Assembly (NCBI GenBank): GCA_001805105.1
Contig: MHEE01000012.1
Span: 171,127-235,126 of the forward strand
Direction: 5' to 3'
DNA from: Nitrospirae bacterium GWF2_44_13
Lineage (GTDB): Bacteria > Nitrospirota > Thermodesulfovibrionia > Thermodesulfovibrionales > UBA1546
Length of the DNA: 64,000 bases
A model generated the notes under the pieces. It made no database searches and was not told the DNA's origin. It saw only the letters and a list, made by a program, of their open reading frames with translations. The translations under genes were made by a program, and so were the position numbers. This document shows, piece by piece, positions 41,761-61,244 of this stretch. Every line of letters starts with the position of its first letter. The first letter of the stretch is position 1.

Positions 41761-42309
41761 CTAAACAGCTTCCACTTCTAAAGCGTCTATCTTCAGCGAC
41801 ACGCCCTGCCTGAGTATATCAACGGAAAGAACAAGGAGATGCTGTCCTTTCCTTTCCGCAAGAATACCTTCCACTCCTGCAAGAGGCCCCATTTTTATCC
41901 TTACCCTCTGGCCTTCCTTCAAATACGGATAGGGGTCAAGGGTTTCTTTGCTTTCAACGAGCTTTTTTAAAGAAATTATCTGATCTTCTGCGACAGGCTC
42001 CGGCTCACTGGGAACAATGCCAAGAAATCTTACAACCCCTTTAGTTTTCAGGACAGACAGCATGGCTTCATAAATCTTATTCATATGGACAAAAATATAA
42101 CCAGGGAAAAGAGGGAAATTTATTAACTTCTTTCTGTCCTTCCATCTGCTGAGTCTCTCAACAGCAGGCAGAAATGTCTCTACGCCGGATTTTTTCAATC
42201 TTTCCACCACTTTAAACTCATGGCGGGATTTAACATGAACAGCATACCAACTCTGTTGCGAGTCGCAACGATAAGCGCCAGAAATATCAGTTAATTCCAT
42301 GTTGCTCAT
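41761..42309 (-). CDS. Specialised NusG paralogue (RfaH/UpxY-like transcription antiterminator)
   Basis: WYAVHVKSRHEFKVVERLKKSGVETFLP...FPLFPGYIFVHM (NGN domain). KOW-like EGQRVRIKMGPLAGVEGIL. Confidence 0.8.
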   Translation of the reverse strand: MSNMELTDISGAYRCDSQQSWYAVHVKSRHEFKVVERLKKSGVETFLPAVERLSRWKDRKKLINFPLFPGYIFVHMNKIYEAMLSVLKTKGVVRFLGIVPSEPEPVAEDQIISLKKLVESKETLDPYPYLKEGQRVRIKMGPLAGVEGILAERKGQHLLVLSVDILRQGVSLKIDALEVEAV

Positions 42310-46512: not shown

Positions 46513-47484
46513 ATGAGGACTATCGCAGTCACAGGTTGTGCAGGATTTATCGGATGCAAGGTATCGGAAAAGCTGATTGAGGACGGCTATTCTGTCGTCG
46601 GCATTGACAACATTAATGATTATTATGATCCAAGGTTAAAGGAATGGCGGCTTGAACAGTTGAAAGGAAAAGGCTCAGGCTTTAATTTTTATAAATGTGA
46701 TATAGGCAATTACAATGAAGTCAAAAAAGTATTCGCCAATCACAAAATAGATGCGGTTATCAATCTTGCCGCGAGGGCAGGTGTGCGGGCATCGGTGGAA
46801 GACCCGTGGATATATCTTGATACAAATGTTAAGGGGACATTAAATCTCCTTGAGTGCTGTAAAAACTTCGATACAAAAAAATTCGTACTGGCCTCTACAT
46901 CAAGCATCTATGGGCTTAACAAGATGCCCTTTAAAGAGACCGACAACACAGACCATCCATTAGCTCCGTATTCTGCTACAAAAAAAGGCGCTGAGGCGAT
47001 ATGCCACAGCTATCATTATCTTTCAGGCCTTGACATAAGCATCCCAAGATACTTCACTGTGTACGGACCGGCAGGCAGGCCTGATATGAGCATATTCAGA
47101 TTCATTAAAAACATTGACAACGAAAGGCCCATCCCTGTCTTTGGCAACGGGAAACAAACAAGAGACTTTACCTATATTGACGACATAGCAGACGGAACAA
47201 TAAAATGCCTTCAGCCGTTCGGTTATGAAATCTTTAACTTCGGCAGCGACAAGCCTGTGGAACTGATGTATGTAATAAACCTGATAGAGCAGCGCCTCGG
47301 GAAAAAGGCAGAGATAGAATGGCTGCCTATACACCCGGCAGATGTGCTGGCGACATGGGCAGACATAGAAAAATCAAAAGAGAAACTCGGATGGGAACCG
47401 ACCGTTTCAATAGAAGAAGGCGTACAACATACAGTTGACTGGTATCTAAAGAACAGGGAATTTTTAAACAGGCTTAAAGATTAA
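46513..47484 (+). CDS. NAD-dependent nucleotide-sugar epimerase (UDP-glucuronate 4-epimerase-like); the only plus-strand gene
   Basis: MRTIAVTGCAGFIGCKVSEKLIEDGYSVVGIDNINDYYDPRLKEWRL, YSATKKGAE. Confidence 0.7.
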   Translation: MRTIAVTGCAGFIGCKVSEKLIEDGYSVVGIDNINDYYDPRLKEWRLEQLKGKGSGFNFYKCDIGNYNEVKKVFANHKIDAVINLAARAGVRASVEDPWIYLDTNVKGTLNLLECCKNFDTKKFVLASTSSIYGLNKMPFKETDNTDHPLAPYSATKKGAEAICHSYHYLSGLDISIPRYFTVYGPAGRPDMSIFRFIKNIDNERPIPVFGNGKQTRDFTYIDDIADGTIKCLQPFGYEIFNFGSDKPVELMYVINLIEQRLGKKAEIEWLPIHPADVLATWADIEKSKEKLGWEPTVSIEEGVQHTVDWYLKNREFLNRLKD

Positions 47485-47936
47485 AAATTCTTGTCATTAT
47501 CACAGTCAATAGCAAATGTGTCACCAGTTACCCTCGTGCCTGTATTGCCAGTAGCAACGGCCCTAAAACAAGGAGTTTTATTTCCATAGGTCGGCGGATT
47601 GGTACTAGTGTTAGTAATTTCCTCGTCTCTCACTATTATGTAGCTAAAGCTAAGATCAGCGCCAGGCCTAAATCCTGGTAGTACCGTAGCCGCCTGAATC
47701 AAAGCTACATTACCAAGCTGGTCAGCGCCTGCAACACCTGTTGTAGACGCATACATTGCATTCTCAGCATAGAACTGTTCCTCAAGAAGCCTCAAGGTCT
47801 GAAGATTTGTATATGCCTCTGTCCTTGTAGCGCTCTTCTGCTGACCGATATAAGCAGGGATTGCAATCATTGCAAGGATGCCGATAATAGCAACCACAAT
47901 CAAAAGCTCTGTTAAAGTAAAGCCTTTTTTATTCAT
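47481..47936 (-). CDS. Type IV pilin-like protein (prepilin N-terminal cleavage/methylation domain, C-terminal disulfide loop)
   Basis: Trimmed to ATG 47936 (AGGAGGTG 5 nt upstream). MNKKG|FTLTELLIVVAIIGILAMIAIPAY (G-1, F+1, E+5). Two Cys near the C-terminus (PCFRAV...AIDC). Confidence 0.85.
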   Translation of the reverse strand: MNKKGFTLTELLIVVAIIGILAMIAIPAYIGQQKSATRTEAYTNLQTLRLLEEQFYAENAMYASTTGVAGADQLGNVALIQAATVLPGFRPGADLSFSYIIVRDEEITNTSTNPPTYGNKTPCFRAVATGNTGTRVTGDTFAIDCDNDKNF

Positions 47937-48040
47937 AATCACCTCCTGAAAGTGTTTAAAGTAATTAAAAAACAATCTATCATTTTTAGACAGATTATTA
48001 CTTCCCTGAGTAATACCTTATTTACTATTGCTTCTAAACT

Positions 48041-49168
48041 TCAATTTTTCAACACTTTTTTAAAAGATTCTATTACATAACAGACCTCTGTATTGTCCAG
48101 ACGAGGATAAAGAGGAAGTGAAACTGTTCTTTTCCCTATGTCTTCAGCTACGGGGAAATCTCCTTCTTTATAGCCAAAAGTTTCTCTATAATATTTAAGC
48201 AAGTGAATTGGCCTATAATTGACAGCCACTCCTATACCTCTTTTTTGAAGCTTATGTAAAATTTCATCTCTTTTTTCGGGGCTAACAAGTATTGTAAAGA
48301 GATGTCTTGCATGTTTTGAATTCGAGACAGTCTTTAAAATCTCAATACCTTTTATATCTTTAAAGGCATCTTCATATATCTTCCATATCCTAACTCTTTG
48401 TGACCAAAGCTCCTCAATCCTCTGAAGCTGACCTATGAGCAAAGCAGCCTGAATATTATCCATGTTATATTTCCATCCGAGCACAGGCATATCCCAGTGC
48501 CTATAAATCTTTGTGTATCGGTCTAAGGCAGATTTATCAATGCCGTGCAGCCTTAACATCCTGATTATCTCTGCCTTTTCTGAACTGCTGGTCGTTACGG
48601 TTCCTCCTTCACCCGATGTTATATTCTTTGTTGCATAAAAACTGAAACATGCTGTTTCTGCCAGTTCTCCAACCCTTACTCCATCTCTTTCAGCCTCAAT
48701 TGCATGTGCTGCATCTTCTATGATTACAAGACTGTATTTATCCGCAATAGTTCTTATCTTTTGCATATTGCACATCTGTCCATATAGATGCACTGGCATT
48801 ATCGCCTTTGTTGTTTTCGTTATCGCCGCTTCAATGAGTTCAGCATTTATATTTCCTGTCTCTTTTTCAACATCAACAAATACCGGCGTGGCGCCTGCGT
48901 GAAGGATGGAGTTTGAAGTGGCGCAAAAGCTCATCGGCGTTGTTATGACCTCATCCCCCCTGCCAATGCCGTAAGCAAGAAGGCTCAAATGCAAAGCGGC
49001 AGTACAGCTTGTTACGCCTATGGCATGCTGCGCCTTAAGATATGCGGCAAACGAATTCTCAAACTCCGAAACAACCTGACCTGTCGTCAGGAATATGGAA
49101 TTTAAAACATCAGTCGCTCTCTTTATGTCATCCTGTTCGATGTTATGTTTAAAAAATTCTATTTTCAC
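48041..49168 (-). CDS. DegT/DnrJ/EryC1-family PLP sugar aminotransferase
   Basis: FSFYATKNITSGEGG (Schiff-base Lys present), GDEVITTPMSF, EDAAHA. Confidence 0.85.
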   Translation of the reverse strand: MKIEFFKHNIEQDDIKRATDVLNSIFLTTGQVVSEFENSFAAYLKAQHAIGVTSCTAALHLSLLAYGIGRGDEVITTPMSFCATSNSILHAGATPVFVDVEKETGNINAELIEAAITKTTKAIMPVHLYGQMCNMQKIRTIADKYSLVIIEDAAHAIEAERDGVRVGELAETACFSFYATKNITSGEGGTVTTSSSEKAEIIRMLRLHGIDKSALDRYTKIYRHWDMPVLGWKYNMDNIQAALLIGQLQRIEELWSQRVRIWKIYEDAFKDIKGIEILKTVSNSKHARHLFTILVSPEKRDEILHKLQKRGIGVAVNYRPIHLLKYYRETFGYKEGDFPVAEDIGKRTVSLPLYPRLDNTEVCYVIESFKKVLKN

Positions 49169-49171
49169 TTT

Positions 49172-50200
49172 CTAATACCAGATAATATTCCCCTTTTTAT
49201 CTTTTACAGGCACCTTTCGCATTGAAACCTGCTTCTCCCACATTGCCTTGTTATTTTTATACCATTCTATCGTCCTCTTAAGCCCATCTTCAAAACCGAC
49301 ATTAGTCCTGAAACTCACAGTATTCGCTATTTTATCAGTGGACGATATGTGTTTTTCAACCTGCCCAAATCTTTCTTCCATGAACTCAAGTCGACTTTCG
49401 TCAAGCCCGAACACATCACATATCATTTCAGCAATCTTAAGGACACTTATGCTTTTACCGCTTCCTGCATTGAAAACCTCTCCCTTTACCTTATCAATCG
49501 GCGCATGAACAGCTTTATCCACAGCCTCGGCAGTATCATCAACAAAAACCCAGTCCCTTTCAGCAGTACCGTCGCCATGTATGGTCAAAGGCTCTCCAAG
49601 CAAAGCACTTGTTATAAACCTCGGGATTACCTTCTCAAGATGCTGCGAAGGGCCGTAATTATTGAACGGCCGTATAATGACACCCGGTATATCATAAGAG
49701 ACTACATAAGAATGGACAAGCCTGTCAGCTCCAGCCTTTGCGGCAGCATACGGCGTTGTAGGATTTAATGGGTGGTCTTCATCCATAGGCTCATAAAGAG
49801 CTGAGCCGTAAACCTCGGATGTTGAGATGTGGATAAATCTCTCTATTCTGTCAACATGCTTTAAAACAGCATTTGCTACAGATTGAGTTCCCAGAACATC
49901 GGTAACAAAAAAGACCCTGTTAAGATAGAGGGAGCGGGCAACATGTGTTTCTGCTGCAAAATGTACAACTACATCAGACCTGCCCACAAGGTCGCTTACA
50001 AGGTCAAGGTTGTTTACATCACCGTACCAGAATTCAAATCTCTCTGAATTCCTGCTCTCAAGAGGAATATTTTCTATATTCCCTGCATAAGTTAAGGCAT
50101 CAAGGACGATTATTTTATAGCCGCTATATTTTTTGAATATGTGCCTGACGAAATTACTTCCAATAACCCCCGCCCCGCCTGTAACAAGAATTGTTTTCAT
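49172..50200 (-). CDS. NDP-hexose 4,6-dehydratase (RfbB-like, second copy)
   Basis: MKTILVTGGAGVIGSNFVRHIFKKYSGYKIIVLDALTYAGNIENI, FAAETHVARS, ISTSEVYG, YAAAKAGADRL. Confidence 0.75.
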   Translation of the reverse strand: MKTILVTGGAGVIGSNFVRHIFKKYSGYKIIVLDALTYAGNIENIPLESRNSERFEFWYGDVNNLDLVSDLVGRSDVVVHFAAETHVARSLYLNRVFFVTDVLGTQSVANAVLKHVDRIERFIHISTSEVYGSALYEPMDEDHPLNPTTPYAAAKAGADRLVHSYVVSYDIPGVIIRPFNNYGPSQHLEKVIPRFITSALLGEPLTIHGDGTAERDWVFVDDTAEAVDKAVHAPIDKVKGEVFNAGSGKSISVLKIAEMICDVFGLDESRLEFMEERFGQVEKHISSTDKIANTVSFRTNVGFEDGLKRTIEWYKNNKAMWEKQVSMRKVPVKDKKGNIIWY

Positions 50201-50231: not shown

Positions 50232-51809
50232 TTATAATGCATCAGATGAATCCATTGTTTTATACATTAAAGCAATAGGCTCATTCTGGAATGATATAAT
50301 ACTTTCTAATCTATAGCCCAAGCTTTTGGCATAATTGGAATCGTTAAGCATACGCATCCATATCATATCCTTATATGGGACATACATCTTTCCGGATAAT
50401 ATCACATATGAAGGCTTCAACGTTTGGCTTATTGTTTTAAGCGTATCAAGATCATACGGAAGCCATATAGCCTTTCTATCAGCATACCATGCCAGTTCCC
50501 ACGGCATATCTGTCAAGATAAGAGTATCTTTTTCCGTCAATTTCTCAACCTGTTTACCCATTGATATGAACGGATTTATCGGTTTGGGACTTTTCCAGTA
50601 CGGCATTGCAGTAAAAGCAAAGGCTATCAGCCCGAATGACAATACAATCGGGCTGTATTTTTTTAAAAGATCATCAACGTTAATCACGGAAACAATCATC
50701 ATTATTGGAAAAAAGAACATGTAATAATACGGCACAGGCCCCATCGGAAGGAGTAAAGCAGTCTGCACAATAATTCCCACGATAGTAATAATCCTCAACA
50801 TGCGCACCCGGGAATTTTTTAAAGGCATAAAAAATGTTACTCCTGTCAGCAATAAGACAACAGGGGTGTAAAAATCCACCGAGTTCTCTAAAAGCCTCCA
50901 AAACCACTGATAGCTCTTTGATATCATCTCCCCGGGATGGCTCATGACGAACATGATGGGGTTAATATCGCTTATTTGTGTCCATACTGAATAAGTCGGG
51001 AAGCTTTTTGTGAACAACAAAAAACTATAGCCATACAATGAAAAGAAAGGATTCCCAATGATACTGTAGTTTCTGACAAGATGCGGCGTGATTCCTATCA
51101 TGAAACCAATTGACAGTTTTCCTGCATCAAGAAATCTTTCTCTTAGATTTTGTTTTCCGTGAAAAATATACATCAGGAAAAAAGCGATAAAGACAAACTG
51201 GGTATTTGCCCTCACGAGTTGTAAGAGACCGAGCATAATTCCGTAAATCAGGGGTCTGCATGGATATTTGATATAGAAATAAAAAAAAGCGACATAAAGC
51301 GACGAATACATAATATTGGGCTCAGCCTGCAGGCTGTGGTCAAGAAAGCACTTCATGCACGAAACCAGCAATGCGGCTATTAGGCTTATAACCGTATTTT
51401 TGGAAAGCTCATATGCAAGGAAATAAACTAAAATAATCAGAGCAACAAAAAAAACACCATTTAAAAAAACAACAGTAAAGTCTGACTGACCAAATATTTT
51501 AAAGGATAATCCTAAGATGTAAGGGTAACCTATCATTCGGGTGATTTCAGGCTGAGGAAGGGTTTTAAAAAAACGGTATGCAAGGGGCCTCAATACAGAT
51601 GTGGAATAACCATTCCCTTCATTAACATTTTTTGCCAGTTGAGCATAATCATGGCTGTCATTTATGACAAAACCATTAAAATGCAAGGCATAGTTTGCAT
51701 ACCATATTGCAACAGCAATTAAAAAAACAAGGATTAAGCCTAATTTAAAGGATAATCTAATTGAATATTCTAAATTTTCTTTTTGAAGATTCTCTTGACT
51801 CTGTTCCAT
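50232..51809 (-). CDS. GT-C-type polytopic glycosyltransferase (ArnT/PMT_2-like)
   Basis: Start set to ATG 51809 (AAGGA upstream); the track start at 51899 would overlap the upstream gene by 130 nt. First periplasmic loop INDSHDYAQLAKNVNEGNGYSTSVLRPL is typical of ArnT/GT39-83-type enzymes. About 12 TM helices plus a C-terminal soluble domain. Confidence 0.55.
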   Translation of the reverse strand: MEQSQENLQKENLEYSIRLSFKLGLILVFLIAVAIWYANYALHFNGFVINDSHDYAQLAKNVNEGNGYSTSVLRPLAYRFFKTLPQPEITRMIGYPYILGLSFKIFGQSDFTVVFLNGVFFVALIILVYFLAYELSKNTVISLIAALLVSCMKCFLDHSLQAEPNIMYSSLYVAFFYFYIKYPCRPLIYGIMLGLLQLVRANTQFVFIAFFLMYIFHGKQNLRERFLDAGKLSIGFMIGITPHLVRNYSIIGNPFFSLYGYSFLLFTKSFPTYSVWTQISDINPIMFVMSHPGEMISKSYQWFWRLLENSVDFYTPVVLLLTGVTFFMPLKNSRVRMLRIITIVGIIVQTALLLPMGPVPYYYMFFFPIMMIVSVINVDDLLKKYSPIVLSFGLIAFAFTAMPYWKSPKPINPFISMGKQVEKLTEKDTLILTDMPWELAWYADRKAIWLPYDLDTLKTISQTLKPSYVILSGKMYVPYKDMIWMRMLNDSNYAKSLGYRLESIISFQNEPIALMYKTMDSSDAL

Positions 51810-53296
51810 AACATCCTTGCCGTAACATTTATAAATCGGAAAGCTAAATAGAAGAAAGCCCTGCCCATTTTTAAAATCTCGCCAATGGATAAATACCATT
51901 TGCTGGAAAGTTTTATAACATTGCCGCCTGCTACTGATTGTGTAAATAACAGCTTTAATCCACTGAAGCTTAGGTAATAGGATAAGTTAGCCCACATCGT
52001 ATCGAAAATGAGTTCAATCCTGTCGTTTCCCTCAGGAACGTAGGGAATATCGTCGCTTTCCCACATGTATTGAACTCCGAAGTTCTCCCAATTCCCTTTG
52101 ATAAGGATTTTACCTTCAGGCGCGAGCATATTATAGACAGGGGTTCCAGGATATGGAGCAAGGGTATTAAAACGGACTGATGACAATGGAAGAGATTTTA
52201 CTAATTTCATCGCACCCCATCGGTCTCTCCTTGTCTCTGTCGGCAGCCCGAAAATTATTGTAGTTCCGACAGCAATACCTTTTCCGGCTGCCCTTTCTAT
52301 CGCTTCAATAACTTCTCTGACCGTTTCTCCCTTATTAATAACTTTCATAAGTCTTTCGCTGCTTGTCTCGAGGCCATAATAAATAATCCTGAAGTTGGCT
52401 TCTGCAGCCTTATCAAGTATCTCGTCCGTGGCATTATCTCCGCGCATTGAACCATGAAAAAATGCCTTTTTATATAAACCTTCACTGATAATTGCGTCAC
52501 AAAGCTCTATGAAGTGTTTCTTGTTAACAGAAATATTATCGTCCATAAGAAAAACCGATTTCTGTCTATATTTATTAATTAAAGTGGAGCATTCAGAAAT
52601 TACTCTATCAACAGAATGAAAACGATATTTTCGTCCTGAAATGCTCCTCGCAGAACAGAATGTGCAGCCATAAGGGCATCCTCTTGAGCCGAACACCCCG
52701 GAAAAGTTTGGATATTTATCAAGATGCTTTTCAAATAAATGATACGGAAATGGAGGGATATCATCAAGATTCTCAATTAAAGGCCTGCTGGGGTTGTGAA
52801 CAGGGCTGCCATTATTATTGTAGGAGATTCCAAGTATATGCCTAAAGTCTTTTCCGTTAAGTATCAAAGCAATAAGTTCTTTTACAGTCTCTTCCCCTTC
52901 TCCTCTTACAACAACATCAACGCCTTTTCTGAACAGCACTTCTTCAGGAACGACTGTGGGATGTATCCCGCCAAAGACAATTTTTGATTTGGGGTCAAGC
53001 ATCTTAACCTTCTCTGCTAATTCATAAGCCCTGCCGCTGTTTAAGGTCAAAACACTCAGGCCGATAACCCGAGGTTTGCGTAGAGCATATATTGTTTCAA
53101 ATAATAGATTATCGTTAAGAGGGGTTACTTGTTCATCAATGATATTCACATGTTCAATACCTGATGCCATTAAATAGCCGGCAAGGACACCAATGCTTGT
53201 GGGGAACGAAATATTTATAAGGGCGTTAATCCTCTTGTTTTGAGAATAGTCGCTTATTTTAGGATTGATTAATAAGATATTTGTCTCCAATATCAC
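51770..53296 (-). CDS. B12-binding-domain radical SAM enzyme
   Basis: VFGGIHPT, VRGEGEETVKELI, VFGSRGCPYGCTFC. 4-nt overlap with the upstream GT2. Confidence 0.8.
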   Translation of the reverse strand: MILETNILLINPKISDYSQNKRINALINISFPTSIGVLAGYLMASGIEHVNIIDEQVTPLNDNLLFETIYALRKPRVIGLSVLTLNSGRAYELAEKVKMLDPKSKIVFGGIHPTVVPEEVLFRKGVDVVVRGEGEETVKELIALILNGKDFRHILGISYNNNGSPVHNPSRPLIENLDDIPPFPYHLFEKHLDKYPNFSGVFGSRGCPYGCTFCSARSISGRKYRFHSVDRVISECSTLINKYRQKSVFLMDDNISVNKKHFIELCDAIISEGLYKKAFFHGSMRGDNATDEILDKAAEANFRIIYYGLETSSERLMKVINKGETVREVIEAIERAAGKGIAVGTTIIFGLPTETRRDRWGAMKLVKSLPLSSVRFNTLAPYPGTPVYNMLAPEGKILIKGNWENFGVQYMWESDDIPYVPEGNDRIELIFDTMWANLSYYLSFSGLKLLFTQSVAGGNVIKLSSKWYLSIGEILKMGRAFFYLAFRFINVTARMLWNRVKRIFKKKI

Positions 53297-54228
53297 TTCT
53301 CCTTCTTTTCTTCCATGCCAATAAAATCTTTAACAATAAAAGGAGGCCTTCTCCTTGATTCATCAAAGTTGCGCCAGAGGTATTCTCCTAATACTCCAAG
53401 CAATATCATTTGGACTCCCGATACTAAAAGAAGAACAACCATAAGAGATGTCCAGCCCTCTATAGTTTTAGAATAAAACAGCCGCGCAGCAATGACAATT
53501 AATGCATATATAAAACCTGTAAAAGCTATTGTTATCCCCAAAAAGGACATAACTCTCAAGGGGTAATAAGAAAATGATACAAAGGTATCTATAAACAGTT
53601 TAATTTTCTTGCCTAATGTCCATTTTGAAGCTCCCTTGTACCTTGCCCCCTTTTTGTAATAAACTACCTTCTGACTGAATCCGCTCCATAGTATAAGACC
53701 GAATATAGATGTGTTTTTTTCTCCCATTGAGATAACAGCATTCACTACTTTCCTGTCAATGAGAAATACATCAGTTCCGCTTTCCGGCATATTCTTAAGC
53801 GCAAACTTTCTTACAAGTCTGTAATATAATCTTTGAAAAAATTGTCCCGAATCTTTCTTCCATTCTCTTACGCCGATCACAACCTCATATCCACTCCGCC
53901 ATTCGTTTATCAATCGGTGAATAAGTTCGGGAGGATCCTGAAGATCAGCGGAAATAAAAGTGCATACATCTCCATTTGAATACATAAGTCCGGCAAGGCA
54001 GGCTGAGTGACTGCCGAAATTTCTTGATAGACTCAAGGCCTTTATACGATTATCTTTTGTTGAGAGTTCTCTTATAATACGGAGAGAACCATCCGAAGAA
54101 CCGTCATCAATAAAAATAAATTCGAAATCATACTCAGCTTGAATTGCTATTTCATTCAATTTCTGATAAAGAACAGAAAGATTTTCCTCTTCATTATATA
54201 TCGGGATAATTACTGATATTAAAGCCAT
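53293..54228 (-). CDS. GT2 polyprenyl-phosphate glycosyltransferase, ArnC/GtrB-like with two C-terminal TM helices
   Basis: ISVIIPIYNEEENL, FIDDGSSDGS, ISADLQDPPELI, RNFGSHSA. C-terminal hydrophobic pair. Confidence 0.8.
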   Translation of the reverse strand: MALISVIIPIYNEEENLSVLYQKLNEIAIQAEYDFEFIFIDDGSSDGSLRIIRELSTKDNRIKALSLSRNFGSHSACLAGLMYSNGDVCTFISADLQDPPELIHRLINEWRSGYEVVIGVREWKKDSGQFFQRLYYRLVRKFALKNMPESGTDVFLIDRKVVNAVISMGEKNTSIFGLILWSGFSQKVVYYKKGARYKGASKWTLGKKIKLFIDTFVSFSYYPLRVMSFLGITIAFTGFIYALIVIAARLFYSKTIEGWTSLMVVLLLVSGVQMILLGVLGEYLWRNFDESRRRPPFIVKDFIGMEEKKEK

Positions 54229-54243
54229 AATAAAATTAATTTA

Positions 54244-54693
54244 TTATAAGTTTTGTTTTTCGTTTTTCCATTTTTCTATTTCACTTTCAATATTCCGTAC
54301 TATTCTGCCTGGGACGCCTGCTACAAGGGAATATGGCGGTATTACAGTTCCTTCCGTAATCACGGTCCCTGCCGCAATAATACTATGATGACCTATATGA
54401 ACACCTATTAGTATAGTTGAATGCTCTCCAATAAAAACATAGTCTTCTACGACAGTCTCAGATTTTTCAACTTCGTTGTATTCTCTTTCTGTCACGCAAC
54501 GCTTTACAGTTGAATGAGTGATTATATGGACGCCGCAGCTTATATTACAGCATCTACCAATTCTTAATCCTCCTATACCATCAATAACAGTAAAAGCCCC
54601 AATCCACGTTCCTTCCCCAATCTCAGGATTATTTATAATCCATGCATGGGGATTATATTTGTTAGGAGAAATTCCATGCTCATCAAATGTCAT
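54244..54693 (-). CDS. Left-handed beta-helix (hexapeptide) acyl/acetyltransferase
   Basis: Start set to ATG 54693 (ATGA overlap with the upstream stop). Hexapeptide repeats IGEGTWIGAFTVIDG..., IGEHSTILIGVHIGHHSIIAAGTVI. Confidence 0.7.
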   Translation of the reverse strand: MTFDEHGISPNKYNPHAWIINNPEIGEGTWIGAFTVIDGIGGLRIGRCCNISCGVHIITHSTVKRCVTEREYNEVEKSETVVEDYVFIGEHSTILIGVHIGHHSIIAAGTVITEGTVIPPYSLVAGVPGRIVRNIESEIEKWKNEKQNL

Positions 54694-55814
54694 TGCAATA
54701 CCTCTTTTATGCATTGTATAACATATGCCTGTTCCTCCACTGTCATTGTTGGATACAAAGGAAGCAGGATTGTATTTTTTGTAACGTGCTCAACTCCGGG
54801 CAAAGGAACATAGTATTTTTTATAGCACTCCTCCATATGAATCGCCATAATCCCTCTTCTTGTCGCTATGCCCTTTTTAAGTAGCCTCCGCATTAAATCA
54901 TCACGTGATACAGGCGAGGTGTCAAGCAATTCAACCCAGTATGATTGATAATTAGGGAAGGCGTAGTCAGGGATTTTAGGGACTTTTAGACATGGGATTT
55001 TTCTTAATTCCGTATTATAAAGATCTGATATCTGTCTTCTTCTTTTTATAATAAATAGCAGTCTTTTAAGCTGTTCTATGCCTATCGCAGCTTGAATATC
55101 GGTCATCCTATAGTTATATCCAATTTCTGGATACATTTCTATTATAACTTTGTCTGCCGTGTGCCTTTCAATATCGGATACTGACATGCCGTGATGACGG
55201 AACCTTCTTAATCTTTCTGCAATCACCTGATTGTCGGTTGTTATCATTCCACCTTCTCCAGTTGTTATAATCTTTCTCGGATGAAAGCTGAAACATGCAA
55301 TGTTGCCATGTCCTCCTATTTTCTTGCCCCTATATTCAGACCCGATAGCACATGCTGCATCTTCTATAAGCACAAGACCGCGCTTCTTACATAAATCCAT
55401 TATCTGGTTAAGGTCAACAGGAAGTCCCATCTGGTGGACAGGCATAACAGCCTTTGTCTTTTTGGTAATAATCTTCTCAATCGTCTCTACTGTAACATTA
55501 CAAGTATCAGGGTCAATATCCGCGAAAACAGGTATCGCACCTGCATGCACTACTGAGTTCGCGGTTGCTATAAAAGACAAGGAAGGCACAATAACCTCAT
55601 CTCCTGTGCTTATGCCTGATACCACAAGCGCAGCGTGAAGAGCCGTAGTGCATGACGTTGTTGCAACCGCATATTTCGCGCCAACATATAGGGCAAACAT
55701 CTCTTCGAATTCTTTAACCTTGGGCCCCTGTGAAACCCAGCCCGAACGGATAGCTTCAGCTGCTGCGGTTTCTTCTTCAATGCCTAAATAAGGCTTTGCA
55801 ATCGGTATATTCAT
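54690..55814 (-). CDS. DegT-family PLP sugar aminotransferase (ArnB-like position)
   Basis: FSFHPRKIITTGEGG, GDEVIVPSLSF, EDAACA. Confidence 0.85.
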   Translation of the reverse strand: MNIPIAKPYLGIEEETAAAEAIRSGWVSQGPKVKEFEEMFALYVGAKYAVATTSCTTALHAALVVSGISTGDEVIVPSLSFIATANSVVHAGAIPVFADIDPDTCNVTVETIEKIITKKTKAVMPVHQMGLPVDLNQIMDLCKKRGLVLIEDAACAIGSEYRGKKIGGHGNIACFSFHPRKIITTGEGGMITTDNQVIAERLRRFRHHGMSVSDIERHTADKVIIEMYPEIGYNYRMTDIQAAIGIEQLKRLLFIIKRRRQISDLYNTELRKIPCLKVPKIPDYAFPNYQSYWVELLDTSPVSRDDLMRRLLKKGIATRRGIMAIHMEECYKKYYVPLPGVEHVTKNTILLPLYPTMTVEEQAYVIQCIKEVLQ

Positions 55815-56818
55815 TTGGGAGTCTCCCAGTTAAAAACAATATCTTCTTTCATCAAATTTGCCGTATTATATCCCTGAGATATAAACCAGCTTATAAACAT
55901 ATCAAGCCCTTTATCAATCCCTATTTCTGCCCTGAATCCAAAAAGCCTTTCTGCCTTCTTAACTCCTGCAAAATGCCTCTTAACATCACCCGGTCTTTCT
56001 TTTTCAAAAACCTGTTTTATGTGAGGCTTGCCAAGCTTTTTGTAAATCTTTTCAGCAAGCTCTTTTATGCTGACCTCTTCGCCGCGAGCAATATTAACGG
56101 TCTGTCCAATCATCTCATCACATCCGGACGCCTTGATAATCCCTTTTACCGTATCAGCAACATAGGTAAAATCCCTTGTCTGCAACCCGTCCCCAAAAAT
56201 AACAGGGGGCTGATCATTAAGCGCCCTAAGGACAAATTTGGGAATCACCTCGCCGTATGCGCCTTCAAAGTGTTCCCTCGGCCCATAGGTATTGAATGGG
56301 ATGACAACCATTGATTGCATGCCGTATGTCCTGTGATACGCAAGTGCATATTTCTCGCCGGCGAGCTTGCTTGCCCCATATATAGTAGTGGGTTCACAAG
56401 GATGCGTCTCGTCCATGGGGACATTAACAGCCGTGCCGTATACCTCTGAAGACGATACATACACAAACCTTTTTACAGAATTCTTAAGCGCAGCCATGCA
56501 CAGATTCAAAGTTCCAGTAGCATTGACCTCATGGTTAATTTCGGGGTCGTTAATTGAAACCCTGAGGCATTGAACAGCAAGATGATAAATAACATCTACT
56601 CCTTTTGTAATGCTAAACAAAAGATTTTTATCTCTTACATCTCCTTCTATAATTTCAACGTTATCTTTTCCAGCATAATGAGCTACATTCTTCTTTTTAC
56701 CTGATGAAAAATTGTCAAGGATTACAATATGGTTGTCTATGACAAGCTCATCCACAAGATTGCTGCCGATGAAACCGGCCCCTCCTGTAACAAGTATTTT
56801 CATGCCCTTAATCTTCAT
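55811..56818 (-). CDS. Extended SDR nucleotide-sugar epimerase/dehydratase/decarboxylase
   Basis: MKILVTGGAGFIGSNLVDELV, SSSEVYG, YGASKLAGE. Confidence 0.75.
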   Translation of the reverse strand: MKIKGMKILVTGGAGFIGSNLVDELVIDNHIVILDNFSSGKKKNVAHYAGKDNVEIIEGDVRDKNLLFSITKGVDVIYHLAVQCLRVSINDPEINHEVNATGTLNLCMAALKNSVKRFVYVSSSEVYGTAVNVPMDETHPCEPTTIYGASKLAGEKYALAYHRTYGMQSMVVIPFNTYGPREHFEGAYGEVIPKFVLRALNDQPPVIFGDGLQTRDFTYVADTVKGIIKASGCDEMIGQTVNIARGEEVSIKELAEKIYKKLGKPHIKQVFEKERPGDVKRHFAGVKKAERLFGFRAEIGIDKGLDMFISWFISQGYNTANLMKEDIVFNWETPK

Positions 56819-56821
56819 ATT

Positions 56822-57928
56822 CTAACTTCTGAAAAATTCCTTAATCTTTTCTGAGATATATACCTGATATTCCTCTTTAAGTTCAGGATACATAGGCAAT
56901 GACAATATCTCGCTGCAAGCCTTTTCTGTTTCCGGAAAATCACCTTTTCTATATCCAAAAACAGCAACTGCTTCCTGAAGATGAGCAGGATTTTTATAAT
57001 GAATGCCCGTTCCTATGCCATTTTTTGAAAGATATTTCTGCAGTTCATCTCTTCTTTGACTTCGGACTACATATAAATGATAAACATGCATCCGGCCTTT
57101 TGCCTCAACAGGAAGCTCAAGAGGGGTATCTTTCAAAAATGAATTATATATCTCTGCCCTTTCTCTTCTTTTACTGTTGTATTCATTGAGATATTTCAGC
57201 CTTATTCTCAAAATTGCAGCCTGTATCTCATCGAGCCTGCCGTTATAACCTATAACAGCATGTTCGTATTTTGATTTATGTCCGTGATTCCTGTATAAAC
57301 GTATGAACTCTGCTGTTTTTTCATTATTAGTTATGACAATGCCGCCTTCGCCGTATGTCCCAAGATTTTTTGTAAAATAAAAACTGAAACAGCCGGCGTC
57401 TCCCAGTGCCCCTGCTTTAATGCCTTTATAAAGCGCGCCATGAGCCTGACATGCGTCTTCTATTACAGAAATCCCGTATTGTTTTGAGATTTCTAATATT
57501 GGGTCTATTCCCGCTGTCTGCCCGTACATATGGACAGGGATTATTGCCTTTGTCTTTTTTGTTATCTTTTTTTCTATGTCTGCGGGGTTAATGTTATAAG
57601 TCAGCGGATCAATATCAACAAAGACCGGCCTTGCCCCTATACATGAAATCGCCTCTACTGTTGCAAAAAAGGTATGCGGCGTTGTTATGACCTCATCTCC
57701 TTCTTTTATTCCGCAGGCCAAAAGGGCAAATTGAATAGCTTCAGTCCCTGAGCCTACGCCTATTGCATATCTTGCGCCGCAAAAGGAAGCAAATTCCTTT
57801 TCGAATGCCTGACAATTCGGCCCTATATTCAGATTCATTCCATCTAAAACATCGCCGATTGCTTTCATCACTTCATCTTTTATAGGTTCAAACCCAGCTT
57901 TAAGGTCAACAAAAGGGATTTCTTTCAT
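56822..57928 (-). CDS. DegT-family PLP sugar aminotransferase (WbpE/WlbC-like position)
   Basis: Start at ATG 57928 (ATGA overlap). FSFYFTKNLGTYGEGG, GDEVITTPHTF, EDACQA. Confidence 0.8.
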   Translation of the reverse strand: MKEIPFVDLKAGFEPIKDEVMKAIGDVLDGMNLNIGPNCQAFEKEFASFCGARYAIGVGSGTEAIQFALLACGIKEGDEVITTPHTFFATVEAISCIGARPVFVDIDPLTYNINPADIEKKITKKTKAIIPVHMYGQTAGIDPILEISKQYGISVIEDACQAHGALYKGIKAGALGDAGCFSFYFTKNLGTYGEGGIVITNNEKTAEFIRLYRNHGHKSKYEHAVIGYNGRLDEIQAAILRIRLKYLNEYNSKRRERAEIYNSFLKDTPLELPVEAKGRMHVYHLYVVRSQRRDELQKYLSKNGIGTGIHYKNPAHLQEAVAVFGYRKGDFPETEKACSEILSLPMYPELKEEYQVYISEKIKEFFRS

Positions 57929-58584
57929 TTGCTTTCCTTTTCCTGATATGGCGGCCACATATATGGCTTCTCATAAAAACCTTTGGGACATGTCAACTGG
58001 TCGATTTTTTTAATAACTTTTGCAGGGTTTCCTGCAACAACACTGTCAGGGGGGACATCCTTTGTTACAACAGAACCGGCGCCTATAAGACTGTTCTTGC
58101 CGATTTTGATACCCGGGAGTATTGTGGAATTAGCTCCGATCCTGACATAGTCTTCAACTACAGCGCCACCCTTACATTCTTTGTAATGCGGACACCCCAT
58201 GGGATGAGGATCATCCGTAAAAACAACATTCGGGCCGACAAAGACATATTTGCCGATTGTTACCATCTCCAGAAAACAACTACTGTGAATCCTGCTGTAA
58301 TCGCCTATTCTGTTTCCAAATTCAAGGACAGAATTTGTTCCGATGCTTACATTATTGCCGATGAGATTATCTTCCCTGATGGATACTCCCTGACCTGTCT
58401 GAAAATAATCTCCGATTTCGCTGCCTGCGTAAACAGTGGTGAACGGCCTTATCTGCCCGTTACTGCCGATTTTTAATTCTAAATCTCCGTGCTTCGCTCC
58501 GCGGGGAGGCTTGCCGATAATGGACGGCGGCTCTATCAATGTCCCTTCACCGACAATAACGTTTGGATAGATGACATTATTCAT
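57925..58584 (-). CDS. Hexapeptide-repeat N-acetyltransferase (WbpD/WlbB-like)
   Basis: Left-handed beta-helix repeats throughout (VGEGTLIEPPSIIG..., IGANSTILPGIKIGKNSLIGAGSVV). Confidence 0.7.
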   Translation of the reverse strand: MNNVIYPNVIVGEGTLIEPPSIIGKPPRGAKHGDLELKIGSNGQIRPFTTVYAGSEIGDYFQTGQGVSIREDNLIGNNVSIGTNSVLEFGNRIGDYSRIHSSCFLEMVTIGKYVFVGPNVVFTDDPHPMGCPHYKECKGGAVVEDYVRIGANSTILPGIKIGKNSLIGAGSVVTKDVPPDSVVAGNPAKVIKKIDQLTCPKGFYEKPYMWPPYQEKESK

Positions 58585-59597
58585 ATGTTTACTTTAACGC
58601 CGCCTTTTTTCAGTGACTTACTTGCAGCTTCAAGAATTCTAACTACTCTTAGCCCTGACTCTCCGTCAGTTATAGGTTTTTTCTTGTTTTTTATGCAGTC
58701 GGCAAAATGTTCGATTTCCACTTTTAATGCCTCTATGTTTGTAATTGCAGGCGCATACATATCTCCTATCCTGTATTGCACCATGCTCTGATAAACGGAT
58801 TTCTCGTTAGCCTTTGAAAGCGTAATACCCTTATCATAAATCTTTATCTTTTCGGCCGGGTCAAGATCATCAAATACAACCATCTTCTTGCTTCCGCCGA
58901 TTATGACCTTTCGTATCTTAACAGGCGACATCCAGTTAACGTGAAAGTGGGCTATTATATTATCTCTGAATTTGACCGTAACATATGCGACATCTTCCAG
59001 CCCCCTCGGTGTATGGCTTGCACCAGTTGCAACAACGCTCACGGGTTTTTCTTCAATAATGAAATCCATAATCGAAAGGTCATGAGGGGCAAGGTCCCAG
59101 ATTACATTTACATCATGCTGAAAGAGTCCCAGATTAACCCTGACAGAATCAAAATAATACACATCTCCAAGTTCACCTGCTGATATGAAGTCCTTAATCC
59201 TCCTTATAGAGCCTGTATATATGAATGTATGGTCAACAAGAAGGGTTAAACCTTTTTTATATGCAAGATTAACAAGAGTTTCCGCCTCCCTGGCAGTTGA
59301 AGTAAAGGGCTTTTCAACAAGCACGTGCTTGCCTGACTCAAGGGCTTCTTTCACAAGTTTATAATGCGTAAAAACCGGTGTGGCCACTGCTACTGCATGA
59401 ATATCTTTATCCTTCAATAAACTCTTATAATCAGTTGTTACATTAATGGACGGATGCCTTAGTTTAATGCGTTCAAGCTTGTCGCGGCTTAAGTCGCAGG
59501 CAAATTTTATATCAGTGTTGTAATTGTCGCTGAAATTTCTGATGAGATTTGGCCCCCAGTAGCCGCAGCCTATAACGCCTACCTTTATATCCTTCAT
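58581..59597 (-). CDS. Gfo/Idh/MocA-family NAD(P) oxidoreductase (WlbA-like sugar 3-dehydrogenase position)
   Basis: MKDIKVGVIGCGYWGPNLIRNF, VLVEKPF. Confidence 0.7.
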   Translation of the reverse strand: MKDIKVGVIGCGYWGPNLIRNFSDNYNTDIKFACDLSRDKLERIKLRHPSINVTTDYKSLLKDKDIHAVAVATPVFTHYKLVKEALESGKHVLVEKPFTSTAREAETLVNLAYKKGLTLLVDHTFIYTGSIRRIKDFISAGELGDVYYFDSVRVNLGLFQHDVNVIWDLAPHDLSIMDFIIEEKPVSVVATGASHTPRGLEDVAYVTVKFRDNIIAHFHVNWMSPVKIRKVIIGGSKKMVVFDDLDPAEKIKIYDKGITLSKANEKSVYQSMVQYRIGDMYAPAITNIEALKVEIEHFADCIKNKKKPITDGESGLRVVRILEAASKSLKKGGVKVNI

Positions 59598-60322
59598 GCC
59601 TTTTTCTTTAGCTCCATGCTCAAAATCAAACCCATTGTCATATCTATATATTTTACCTCAAAGCCGAGCTTCTTATAGAAGTTCATTGCTATGCTATTAT
59701 TAGCCTGTGTTCTGACTGTGGCCGTATTCACCCCATTTTCTTTAAACCATTTTAAAGCCCTGTGCATAAGACTGGTTCCTATCCCTTTGCCCTGTGACTT
59801 GGGAATTACACCGATATGAGGTATGTCCCCTCTATTTTTAGACAGTCTTTTGCAGGTGATAAAACCGCTCTTTTCGGCAACAAATACCTTAATCGTTTTA
59901 TCTTCCACAGAATTTTCAACCCAAGCCTGATAGACCTTGTCAGCTTCTTTTTTTGTAAAAAAGGGGTCATTATAAAAACGGCTGTCTTTGAACAGTCCCC
60001 TTACGGTTGTTTTGAGCATTGGGCTATCTTTGCCTGTTGCCTCCCTTATATTAGAATTTGAGATTTGAGATTTAAGATTTGAAATATTTTTGATAATCTT
60101 TTTTTCCCATACAATACCAATATCAGTCAAATAAAATCCGTGTTTTTCGAGAAGCTGGATTTCTGCTATCTTATCCAAAATTAATCTGCATGAGAGATAT
60201 TCGTATCCTTTGTTATGCGCCTGATGAATCAGATTTTTGAGTTTCTTTCCCTGCGGGACTTTTGTTAATCTTCCGATTTTCCTGCTAAAAAATTCTGAAT
60301 CCCACTCAACTTTCTCAATCAA
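59594..60322 (-). CDS. GNAT N-acetyltransferase, WecD (TDP-fucosamine acetyltransferase)-like
   Basis: N-terminal VEWDSEFFSRKIGRL (WecD-type opening). C-terminal GNAT core HIGVIPKSQGKGIGTSLMHRAL. Confidence 0.6.
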   Translation of the reverse strand: MIEKVEWDSEFFSRKIGRLTKVPQGKKLKNLIHQAHNKGYEYLSCRLILDKIAEIQLLEKHGFYLTDIGIVWEKKIIKNISNLKSQISNSNIREATGKDSPMLKTTVRGLFKDSRFYNDPFFTKKEADKVYQAWVENSVEDKTIKVFVAEKSGFITCKRLSKNRGDIPHIGVIPKSQGKGIGTSLMHRALKWFKENGVNTATVRTQANNSIAMNFYKKLGFEVKYIDMTMGLILSMELKKKA

Positions 60323-61244
60323 GAATATGCTCCTTAATAATATAGATAGGCCTTGCCTGAACCTCCTGATATACCCTGCCGATATATTCCCCTATAATGC
60401 CGAGCATTAAAAGTTGTATTCCGCCGACGAATAGGACTGCTACAATTATTGAGGCATAGCCAAGCACAGGTATCCCGAGGAATAACTTTTTGTAGATAAA
60501 ATACAAACTATAAAACAATCCGATACCTGAACTCAGCAAGCCGATGTAAGTTGCAAGCCTGAGCGGAAAGGTCGAAAATGACGTAATGGCATTAAATGCA
60601 AGTCTGAAGAGCTTGATGACATTGTATTTGCTTTTCCCGCGCTCGCGCGGTGCGTGCTCAACTTCCTGCATGGCAGTTTTAAATCCGGTCCATGCTATCA
60701 TGCCGTGAATAAACCTTGACCGCTCTCTCATGCTGTTAAGGGCGTCAAGTATCTTCCTGTCGAATATCCTCAAAAGCGTCTGGTTTCTCGGAATGTTTAT
60801 TCCGGAAAAGCTGTTGATAAACCACCAGAATACAAAAGAAGCAAATCGCTTTAATATTGAATCCTTTTTTTCTTTTCTTATCCCGTAGACAAGCTCATAA
60901 CCTTCATTGAATTTTTTGAGAAGCTTCGGAATTTCCTCTGGCGGATCCTGCAAGTCTCCGTCCATCAATATAATTGCCTTACCTTGTGCATGATCCATGC
61001 CTGCTGTGATTGCTATATGATGTCCGAAGTTTCTTGAGAAGCTGAGTCCTTTTACTCTCGAATCCTTTTCATGCAAATCCTTTATAATCTGCCAGCTTTT
61101 ATCTGAGCTTCCGTCATCAACAAAAATAATTTCATAGGTTCCAAGCCTCTCCATAACCGTCCCCAAACGTCTGTGAAGTTCACTGACATTCTCTTCTTCA
61201 TTGTAAACCGGTATAATTATGGAAAATTCAATCATATCCTTCAC
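60315..61244 (-). CDS. GT2 polyprenyl-phosphate glycosyltransferase, ArnC/GtrB-like with two C-terminal TM helices (paralogue of 53293..54228)
   Basis: FSIIIPVYNEEENV, FVDDGSSDKS, LMDGDLQDPPEEI, RNFGHHIA. Confidence 0.8.
   Translation of the reverse strand: MKDMIEFSIIIPVYNEEENVSELHRRLGTVMERLGTYEIIFVDDGSSDKSWQIIKDLHEKDSRVKGLSFSRNFGHHIAITAGMDHAQGKAIILMDGDLQDPPEEIPKLLKKFNEGYELVYGIRKEKKDSILKRFASFVFWWFINSFSGINIPRNQTLLRIFDRKILDALNSMRERSRFIHGMIAWTGFKTAMQEVEHAPRERGKSKYNVIKLFRLAFNAITSFSTFPLRLATYIGLLSSGIGLFYSLYFIYKKLFLGIPVLGYASIIVAVLFVGGIQLLMLGIIGEYIGRVYQEVQARPIYIIKEHILD

Follow-up and report, generated by a model that had tools for sequence, protein, structure and literature searches.

Described carrier-linked systems and the Nitrospirota locus

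Lipid-linked monosaccharide donors feed lipid A modification (as in polymyxin resistance), O-antigen seroconversion, teichoic acid decoration and protein O-glycosylation. In the described systems, to our knowledge, synthesis of the sugar is complete before carrier loading, and later changes go no further than deacylation or epimerisation. Here we analyse a gene cassette from Nitrospirae bacterium GWF2_44_13 that is built along similar lines and that also encodes a B12-binding radical S-adenosylmethionine (SAM) enzyme. It lies in a stretch of 64,000 nucleotides (nt) of contig MHEE01000012.1 (positions 171,127 to 235,126; assembly GCA_001805105.1), which we call the window and whose own numbering is used throughout. 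A sequence-only reading of positions 50232 to 56818 had described an Arn-like module for the transfer of an aminosugar to lipid, with an acetyltransferase and a radical SAM enzyme inserted into it. We think it probable, although by no means assured, that the genes form a cassette for carrier-mediated extracytoplasmic glycosylation, of the three-component type known from the Arn and Gtr systems, in which the B12 radical SAM enzyme provides an obligatory step. Its variant feature would be the placement of a conserved orphan radical SAM family at the carrier-linked step.

The Arn pathway of Escherichia coli and Salmonella (PmrHFIJKLM) proceeds from a short-chain dehydrogenase/reductase (SDR) that yields a 4-keto sugar, through C4 transamination by a DegT-family enzyme and N-acylation, to an ArnC/GtrB-type family 2 glycosyltransferase (GT2) and finally a periplasmic glycosyltransferase of the GT-C fold. 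The same succession of functions can be read from the window genes, and relatives of the cassette in other genomes add a deacetylase (PF01522) of the family of ArnD, whose substrate in the Arn pathway is the lipid-linked sugar. The two systems differ, however, in several respects. A beta-helix acetyltransferase takes the place of the formyltransferase, ArnD and ArnE/F are missing from the window, the SDR does not score as an orthologue of ArnA (62 bits against its model), the GT-C protein is not ArnT-like in sequence, and the module has C3-amination genes and an obligatory B12 radical SAM gene that are absent from Arn. Since the formyltransferase, ArnD and ArnE/F are missing, the GT-C protein is not ArnT-like and no protein reaches the equivalog cutoff of ArnA, ArnB or ArnC, we place the module outside the Arn pathway, although it is predicted to work in the manner of the Arn, Lgm/Flm and Gtr systems.

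In Francisella (FlmF2/NaxD/FlmK) and Bordetella (LgmA/LgmC/LgmB), an ArnC-like GT2 makes undecaprenyl phosphate-linked N-acetylhexosamine (HexNAc), a deacetylase acts at the lipid stage and a GT-C enzyme transfers the sugar to lipid A. Loci related to our cassette show this logic of GT2, deacetylase and GT-C, whereas the Francisella and Bordetella systems have no radical SAM enzyme and handle simple galactosamine or glucosamine; the deacetylase families may also differ. The three-component systems (GtrA/GtrB/GtrC of Shigella and Salmonella phages, CsbB/GtcA/YfhO, PgfS/PgfM and the pentofuranose systems, PMC11127046) likewise combine a GtrB-type GT2 carrying a transmembrane (TM) hairpin with a GT-C enzyme, and there, as here, the GT-C partner varies by lineage while the donor-forming part is conserved. 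In contrast to them, the window module has no flippase of the GtrA or small multidrug resistance (SMR) type, its donor would be heavily tailored, and a radical SAM gene stands between the GT2 and GT-C genes.

A parallel for the sugar itself is provided by Psychrobacter cryohalolentis, whose O-antigen contains 2,3,4-triacetamido-2,3,4-trideoxy-L-arabinose (PMC8040287). In the pathway of strain K5, an SDR, a C4 aminotransferase and an N-acetyltransferase act after oxidation, transamination and acetylation at C3, and the corresponding SDR, DegT aminotransferase and acetyltransferase of the window match PDB entries 8vr2 (163 bits), 8vr5 (189 bits) and 8vr6 (59 bits). The title of 8vr2, obtained through Foldseek, names the Pcryo_0617 oxidoreductase/decarboxylase of P. 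cryohalolentis. Organism and reaction are given for this entry alone, 8vr3 and 8vr5 being labelled simply as DegT aminotransferases and 8vr6 as 'Acetyltransferase, putative', and we infer from the neighbouring PDB codes only that the three belong to the same study. Our literature search brought up no paper on these entries or on Pcryo_0617. The differences are that identities are about 30%, that no WbpA-type 6-dehydrogenase is linked to the window genes, that the Psychrobacter pathway has no radical SAM enzyme, and that its sugar goes into the O-antigen by a route without a GtrB/GT-C side path. By analogy, the enzyme logic of the window would fit triacetamido-arabinose or its 6-deoxyhexose analogue.

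A second parallel concerns the radical SAM enzyme. In gentamicin biosynthesis, GenD2, GenS2, GenN and GenD1 are an oxidoreductase, a transaminase, an N-methyltransferase and a B12 radical SAM C-methylase that act on one aminosugar, garosamine (PMC4340712). Many related loci carry exactly this quartet, the likeness being one of gene sets. There, however, the substrate is a free pseudotrisaccharide and not a lipid-linked monosaccharide, and the window has no N-methyltransferase. In the papers that our searches covered, radical SAM or B12 enzymes were nowhere connected to ArnC, ArnT, GtrB, undecaprenyl phosphate or GT-C systems.

Gene content and conservation of the cassette

From 62809 down to 47481, all genes lie on the minus strand and adjoining genes either overlap or are separated by gaps of at most 65 nt. 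In the direction of transcription, the cassette opens with a GFO/IDH/MocA oxidoreductase (58581..59597; Pfam GFO_IDH_MocA), which is proposed to be a sugar C3 dehydrogenase, a hexapeptide N-acetyltransferase (57925..58584; Pfam Hexapep) whose proposed target is the 3-amino group, and a DegT aminotransferase of the C3 type (56822..57958). These are followed by an extended SDR (55811..56818) that would combine C4 oxidation with handling of the C5 proton in a 4,6-dehydratase or oxidative decarboxylase reaction, an ArnB-like DegT aminotransferase of the C4 type (54690..55814; PF01041, 397 bits), and a left-handed beta-helix acyltransferase of 156 residues (54244..54714; Pfam Hexapep) that is proposed to N-acetylate the 4-amino group. 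A GtrB/ArnC-type GT2 (53293..54228), predicted to make a polyprenyl phosphate-linked sugar, the B12-binding radical SAM enzyme (51770..53296), proposed to tailor that sugar, and a PMT_2 glycosyltransferase of the GT-C fold (50232..51809; PF13231, 38 bits), proposed to carry out periplasmic transfer, complete the set.

The last three genes are tightly packed. The GT2 stop and the radical SAM start share four nt (GTGA), with an AAGGAG Shine-Dalgarno sequence six bases upstream, and the end of the radical SAM gene is overlapped by 40 nt by the GT-C gene even when the latter is counted from the ATG at 51809. The longest GT-C reading frame extends up to 51899; the start at 51809 is most likely, because the resulting 525 residues are the length of two of the three closest full-length homologues (P0122 and P0123). 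The sequence-only reading had the coordinates, strand and domains of its six open reading frames (ORFs) right, together with the four-nt overlap, but it drew the module too narrowly, as the unit extends upstream to the GFO protein, the QdtC-like acetyltransferase and the C3 aminotransferase (56822-59597). Nor does the radical SAM gene behave as an insertion: it is instead the most conserved and defining gene of an old cassette, and base composition gives no sign of its recent arrival.

A scan for the radical SAM protein, with one genome kept per species, gave 30 loci. Their ORFs were called, compared with the window proteins and clustered, and the counts given below exclude the window, with which there are 31 sources. 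The loci belong to Omnitrophota, Magnetococcales, several Desulfobacterota, Halobacteriovoraceae, Nitrospinota, Elusimicrobiota, Rhodospirillaceae and Hydrogenedentota, in addition to Nitrospirota, and one Planctomycetota contig was added separately, so that the spread covers at least 10 phylum-level lineages. The two closest loci, 98% and 95% identical, come from Nitrospiraceae and Thermodesulfovibrionales metagenome-assembled genomes, and the first of these is syntenic with the window from a GNAT gene upstream of the cassette to a pilin gene; these matches assign the window to Nitrospirota.

Near the radical SAM gene we find a DegT aminotransferase in 24 of the 30 loci, a relative of the GT2 in 23, an SDR (mostly with an SSSEV motif) in 21, a relative of the GFO protein in 18 (43-86% identity) and a hexapeptide acetyltransferase in 13; several of the loci that lack cassette genes are short contigs. 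A polytopic membrane protein lies no more than two to three genes from the radical SAM gene in about 23 of the loci with contigs that reach so far. Among representatives, this partner is a PMT_2 protein in Nitrospirota, Magnetococcus, one Omnitrophota locus and the Planctomycetota locus, and elsewhere a member of a group of about 510 residues with a weak GtrII match or a DUF2079 protein. Precomputed Pfam calls on independent contigs agree with this cassette content. Because the same genes recur around orthologues of the radical SAM gene in 30 other genomes, their grouping is far beyond chance, and the expectation that the module is conserved as a unit is borne out.

The content of the cassette in other lineages is informative in two further respects. 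In eight loci, a deacetylase of about 390 residues (PF01522/DUF2334, the ArnD family) is encoded as a separate gene directly upstream of the radical SAM gene. In Omnitrophota, it is fused to the C-terminus of the radical SAM protein, giving chains of 866-877 residues (L017, 9992-12589; L032, 9992-12610; L004, 8001-10601), and the fusion proteins P0076, P0061, P0062, P0064, P0084, P0096 and P0097 have this architecture. The cassette deacetylases have neither a signal peptide nor a TM helix. The earlier remark that no ArnD deacylase is evident therefore holds for the window but not for the cassette as a family, which includes such an enzyme, free or fused, in other lineages.

The second variable is a slot, located after the C4 aminotransferase gene and before that of the GT2, which holds the small acetyltransferase here and elsewhere a PglD-like acetyltransferase, a sulfotransferase with or without adenosine 5'-phosphosulfate (APS) kinase, a methyltransferase, or FkbH with a small ORF of acyl carrier protein (ACP) size. 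Because the slot varies in this way, its content suggests that the 4-amino group may be modified differently by lineage. A sulfotransferase occupies it in L086 (5378-6804, with APS kinase beside it), in L023 (6084-6845) and, as c13 genes, in L024, L025, L027 and L033, which may be a sign that the lipid carrier bears an N- or O-sulfated aminosugar. The full order in L086 is GFO, acetyltransferase, DegT, SDR, DegT, APS kinase, sulfotransferase, GT2, PF01522 deacetylase, radical SAM, DUF2079 and methyltransferase. In Thermodesulfovibrio sp. PNOC01000016 (L001, 2318-7049), the slot contains an unannotated protein of 349 residues, a hexapeptide transferase, a methyltransferase, an FkbH-like protein and an ACP-size ORF of 79 residues, and this set points to a glyceryl-derived acid as the N-acyl substituent of the 4-amino group.

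The two aminotransferases can be told apart by their relatives. The best solved relative of the protein at 54690 is ArnB (1mdo, 247 bits), followed by perosamine synthase (232 bits), and on that account it is by homology a C4 aminotransferase; among NCBIfam models, it scores 308 bits against ArnB (cutoff 631) and higher, 329 bits, against PseC. The protein at 56822 is by the same kind of evidence a C3 aminotransferase, since its closest solved relatives are 7b0d (422 bits), QdtB (355 bits), the DesV-type enzyme 2oga (312 bits) and WbpE (272 bits). The acetyltransferase at 57925 is most similar to QdtC, a 3-amino-sugar N-acetyltransferase (125 bits). For the GFO protein, matches in the PDB are generic and uninformative, and the best NCBIfam model is the archaeal UDP-N-acetylglucosamine 3-dehydrogenase (172 bits, below the cutoff of 450). 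A C3 dehydrogenase, a C3 aminotransferase and a 3-N-acetyltransferase, all assigned by homology, are thus encoded together as a set of the WbpB/WbpE/WbpD type. Because these C3-amination genes are conserved, the unit points to a 2,3,4-tri-N-substituted sugar, which would be more substituted than the 4-amino-4-deoxyarabinose (Ara4N) of the Arn pathway. In phyla with a single GT2, the C3-amination genes are clearly part of the radical SAM cassette. No formyltransferase domain occurs among the ORFs of the block, where the hexapeptide acyltransferase is found in its stead, as had been proposed.

The SDR carries the motifs S122-S-S-E125-VYG and Y147-GAS-K151, which are kept in its orthologues. In HMMER alignments, the glutamate position is alanine in the nearest epimerases (SSSAVYG in 6dnt and SSAAVYG in 6wjb), while UXS1 has STSEVYG. 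Because the catalytic glutamate is conserved in the SDR and its orthologues, a plain 4-epimerase is disfavoured, in line with the assignment originally made. The choice between a decarboxylase and a 4,6-dehydratase is another matter. The NCBIfam models give 215 bits for the LegB-type 4,6-dehydratase and 184 for RmlB, compared with 62 for ArnA (cutoff 777) and 59 for the ArnA-like UXS model. Solved structures rank otherwise, with 165 bits for UXS1, 163 for 8vr2 and 142 for DesIV. The FNTYGPR motif, which is closer to UXS than to RmlB, and the ArnB-like partner aminotransferase count for a decarboxylase. GDP-mannose dehydratases likewise use a T-S-E motif, and only two of the 30 related loci have a nucleotide-sugar 6-dehydrogenase gene no more than 10 kb from the radical SAM gene, a finding that counts for a dehydratase.

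The radical SAM enzyme and its proposed substrate

The radical SAM protein has an N-terminal B12-binding domain (PF02310, 74 bits) and a radical SAM core (PF04055, 92 bits) in which the cluster motif C207-x3-C211-x2-C214 (CxxxCxxC) is invariant. It has no predicted TM helix, but its C-terminus forms a conserved hydrophobic, arginine-rich helix followed by a basic tail. All equivalog models score far below their cutoffs, the best being BchE (162 bits, cutoff 481), ApyD (160 bits) and HpnJ (152 bits), and the protein falls outside the characterised subfamilies tested (BchE, HpnJ, HpnR, MgmA, PhpK, KedN5 and others). Among solved structures it comes closest to 9ccb (78 bits), the glutamine C-methylase MgmA of methyl-coenzyme M reductase, and OxsB gives 48 bits. 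Orthologues in the 30 loci are 47-98% identical, after which identity drops to 36% or less, marking the paralogues. Close homologues make up at least 120 clusters at 90% identity among the matches listed, with 52-96% identity to the window protein. This is the best-conserved gene of the cassette; in L019, for example, its identity is 56%, whereas the GT2 and the SDR reach 37% and 45%. We infer a highly conserved, function-orphan family that tailors a lipid-linked sugar.

The window contains nine further B12 radical SAM genes on the same strand (1071-2915, 6300-8249, 9627-11027, 11037-12362, 12362-14005, 33411-34868, 34917-36335, 37093-38529 and 38538-40031), bringing the number in 64 kb to ten, and a HemN-like radical SAM gene at 8260-9627. 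The other nine are only 27-31% identical to the focal family. Two to four extra B12 radical SAM paralogues are also present in L016, L017, L026 and L032.

The enzymes on either side of the radical SAM protein are those of a carrier-linked system. The GT2 aligns over its full length with GtrB of Synechocystis (sll0501, 231 bits) and with ArnC (146-161 bits), reaches 227 bits against the PgfS model and 188 against that of ArnC (cutoff 529), missing both equivalog cutoffs, and ends in a hairpin of two TM helices, as is typical of polyprenyl phosphate glycosyltransferases. The membrane protein encoded downstream was modelled with AlphaFold2 from an alignment of 31 homologues (predicted local distance difference test, pLDDT, 90.6; predicted template modelling score, pTM, 0.90). 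All Foldseek matches to this model with E<0.1 are GT-C enzymes or subunits of related membrane complexes (AglB, STT3, ArnT, ALG12, ALG9, PglB, DPY19, Pmt4 and AftA), with TM-scores of 0.43-0.54, and its first loop holds the invariant residues D51, R74 and E88. We are therefore confident that the protein is predicted correctly to have the GT-C fold. In these respects the Arn-like logic originally recognised, with ArnB nearest to the C4 aminotransferase, a full-length GtrB/ArnC homologue and a GT-C fold, is upheld.

The more specific designation of the membrane protein as ArnT-like finds no support. A phmmer search of solved chains, ArnT included, gave no match at E<=1, and the TM-score to ArnT (0.43) is no better than those to AglB, ALG12 or PglB; this is a generic GT-C protein. 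Its family comprises 43 proteins, of which the members named by taxon are all from Nitrospirota or Thermodesulfovibrionales.

The pathway that we favour would begin with uridine diphosphate (UDP)-HexNAc, which cytoplasmic enzymes would convert into a multiply N-substituted sugar. C3 would be oxidised by the GFO protein, transaminated by the aminotransferase at 56822 and acetylated by the hexapeptide enzyme at 57925. C4 would be oxidised by the SDR, with 4,6-dehydration or decarboxylation, and then transaminated by the aminotransferase at 54690 and N-acetylated by the enzyme at 54244. The GT2 would load the sugar onto polyprenyl phosphate, and the translationally coupled radical SAM enzyme would modify it, most likely by C-methylation, at the cytoplasmic face of the membrane. 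A flippase, for which the module holds no candidate gene, would move the product across the membrane, and the GT-C enzyme would transfer it to a periplasmic acceptor such as pilin, lipopolysaccharide (LPS) or another envelope component. A bolder version, which we offer tentatively and would still call doubtful, is that the whole radical SAM family acts on a polyprenyl phosphate-linked sugar, and would be the first of the radical SAM enzymes shown to do so. It would add a C-methyl branch or a rearrangement to a 2,3,4-tri-N-substituted sugar, in many lineages after N-deacetylation by the fused ArnD-like domain, and thus constitute a fourth component that decorates type IV pilins in Nitrospirota.

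Several other explanations can be weighed against this pathway. If the locus encoded a strict Arn pathway, UDP-glucuronic acid (UDP-GlcA) made by Ugd would be decarboxylated by the SDR to give a 4-amino-pentose that is N-acylated and passed via undecaprenyl phosphate to lipid A, lowering its negative charge. The S-S-E motif of the SDR is that of UXS and ArnA, its scores to UXS1 and Pcryo_0617 are high among solved structures, among solved structures the aminotransferase is closest to ArnB, the best match of the small acetyltransferase has a PDB code adjoining the Pcryo_0617 entry, and 2,3,4-triacetamido-arabinose does occur in nature (PMC8040287). The window also has a UDP-glucose 6-dehydrogenase-type gene (Ugd, 40320-41648), exactly where the sequence-only reading had placed it. 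Nevertheless, this gene belongs to another group of genes at a distance of 15 kb, and the rarity of linked 6-dehydrogenases, the preference of the SDR for the LegB-type and RmlB models over that of ArnA, the missed equivalog cutoffs, the absence of a formyltransferase, ArnD and ArnE/F from the window, a GT-C protein that is not specifically ArnT-like, and C3-amination genes that imply a sugar more substituted than Ara4N all make a strict Arn pathway very unlikely in our estimation. The proposed origin of the sugar from UDP-GlcA is likewise unproven. It is also conceivable that the radical SAM enzyme acts on the nucleotide-activated sugar, so that the GT2 moves an already tailored substrate and proximity reflects operon packing. 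The other tailoring enzymes of the cassette are all nucleotide-sugar enzymes, the radical SAM protein lacks a TM helix, and in some loci its gene is several genes from the GT2 gene or on the opposite strand. We nonetheless judge this quite unlikely, and favour action at the lipid-linked stage, because the radical SAM gene keeps its position between the GT2 and GT-C genes, its start is coupled to the GT2 stop, it adjoins or is fused to a deacetylase of the ArnD family, whose Arn member is a lipid-stage enzyme, and its product has the conserved hydrophobic and basic C-terminal helix and tail.

A different question is which reaction takes place on the lipid-linked aminosugar. C-methylation is our best guess by analogy, because the protein has class B architecture, MgmA is a C-methylase and gentamicin biosynthesis provides a precedent; a class I methyltransferase gene directly after the radical SAM gene in eight loci counts as further support. 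That same separate methyltransferase, already present in many loci, can be turned to favour a non-methylating radical reaction, such as ring contraction or rearrangement (as for HpnJ and OxsB), epimerisation, dehydrogenation or deamination, and so can the near-equal BchE, ApyD and HpnJ scores (152-162 bits) and the match to OxsB. The hopanoid trio of HpnI (a glycosyltransferase), HpnK (a deacetylase) and HpnJ (a B12 radical SAM enzyme) follows the same logic as the related loci and counts in the same direction. We regard such chemistry as unlikely, given that most characterised B12 radical SAM enzymes are methylases, MgmA included, and that a carbocyclic or rearranged product would probably be a poor donor for a GT-C enzyme. 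Finally, the radical SAM gene might belong to an unrelated pathway, for instance peptide or pilin methylation, and adjoin the glycosylation genes by accident. Its nearest solved relative does methylate a protein glutamine, ApyD is an enzyme of ribosomally synthesised and post-translationally modified peptide (RiPP) pathways, and the block is flanked by pilin genes. Against this, synteny with GT2, aminosugar and GT-C genes extends over 30 loci in at least 10 lineages, pilin genes are confined to the Nitrospirota loci and the radical SAM protein can be fused to a carbohydrate deacetylase domain, and we find a fortuitous association barely credible.

Our own proposal is not free of difficulties, and the following observations weigh against it. 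Motifs, hidden Markov model and PDB scores, AlphaFold2/Foldseek results and 6-dehydrogenase linkage give conflicting answers on whether the SDR is a decarboxylase or a 4,6-dehydratase. Gene order cannot prove that the radical SAM enzyme acts after the GT2, and its equal scores to BchE (a cyclase), ApyD and HpnJ (a putative ring-contracting enzyme) leave room for chemistry other than methylation. By tblastn, neither the cassette deacetylase nor the cassette methyltransferase has a match in the window, as the earlier reading had noted for ArnD. That reading was also correct about the flippase: no ORF of up to 220 residues with at least two TM helices lies in or beside the module, so that a flippase of neither ArnE/F nor GtrA/SMR type is present there, although small multi-TM ORFs follow the GT2 gene in some relatives (for example, L012 and L023). 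Some loci are incomplete: L014 lacks the SDR and GFO genes, L085 has no GT2 gene in the stretch fetched, and L028 and L029 are short contigs. Because the GT-C partners are not orthologous across lineages, acceptors may differ between them. Moreover, since the window holds two sets of GT2 and membrane-protein genes, the C3-amination genes may here feed the second GT2.

Acceptor, surrounding genes and biological meaning

The flanking pilins that had been named as candidate acceptors are indeed encoded at both ends of the block. The upstream type IV pilin gene (63212..63745, minus strand) has an N_methyl motif and its product begins with KGFTLIELLIVVAIIGILA; the downstream one (47481-47975) belongs to a group of minus-strand genes directly after the GT-C gene (47481..50200) that also includes a second SDR and a PseC-like DegT aminotransferase (48041-50200). 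Pilin genes are embedded in the block not only in the window but also in L005, L006, L009 and L034, all from Nitrospirota, and no such link was found in the loci of other phyla. From this embedding, a pilin acceptor specific to Nitrospirota is a reasonable guess. L005 and L006 keep the whole SDR/DegT/pilin arrangement downstream of the GT-C gene; L007 and L009 keep its SDR/DegT pair. This second SDR is RmlB-like (310 bits) and has the motif STSEVYG, whereas the true RmlB of the window (43806-44822) has STDEVYG.

Upstream of the cassette lies a second set of minus-strand genes that includes no radical SAM gene: a WecD-like GNAT (59594-60322), a second GtrB/ArnC-type GT2 (60315-61244) that is 39% identical to the first, and a protein of 504 residues (61295-62809) with seven TM helices, C-terminal tetratricopeptide repeats (TPR) and no Pfam family. 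This trio also adjoins type IV pilin genes in L009 (3-3613) and L034 (3-3234), and may be a pilin-glycosylation set. We do not assign the 504-residue TPR protein to the GT-C enzymes, hhalign giving no significant relation to the GT-C profile. The c8 membrane protein, compared with the same profile, likewise showed no significant relation.

The window as a whole is a single extended glycan locus with its genes on one strand. Between rml and ugd (41761-42884), it has genes for a NusG-like protein and a winged-helix regulator, an arrangement typical of an antitermination control point in long polysaccharide operons. Promoter and terminator predictions between 46.4 and 64 kb were as numerous as in shuffled sequence, and Rfam and tRNA scans found nothing. 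At 20964-22735, a pair of genes similar to those of the pyruvate dehydrogenase E1 alpha and beta subunits (E1_dh; Transket_pyr and Transketolase_C) stands beside two SDRs, a DegT aminotransferase, a GHMP kinase and a nucleotidyltransferase (22737-27572), and may add a two-carbon sugar branch. Two adjacent membrane ORFs of 272 and 200 residues (28755-30176) with a weak Wzy_C match (E 0.002) may represent a split or divergent ligase; their neighbours are an 11-TM protein (30173-31642) and a DUF2079 protein (31645-33405).

If the proposed placement of the radical SAM enzyme is correct, a B12 radical enzyme working between a GT2 and a GT-C transferase would represent new chemistry at the membrane, and a large orphan family of radical SAM proteins would gain a function. 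Three-component periplasmic glycosylation would then have a fourth component devoted to chemical tailoring, found in mostly uncultured anaerobes. An undecaprenyl phosphate-linked aminosugar would be a defined and testable substrate for a class of enzymes that is hard to deorphanise. For the organisms themselves, the cassette would mean that Nitrospirota, Omnitrophota, Magnetococcales and other lineages, whose envelopes are essentially unstudied, display exotic poly-amino and possibly branched sugars on their surfaces.

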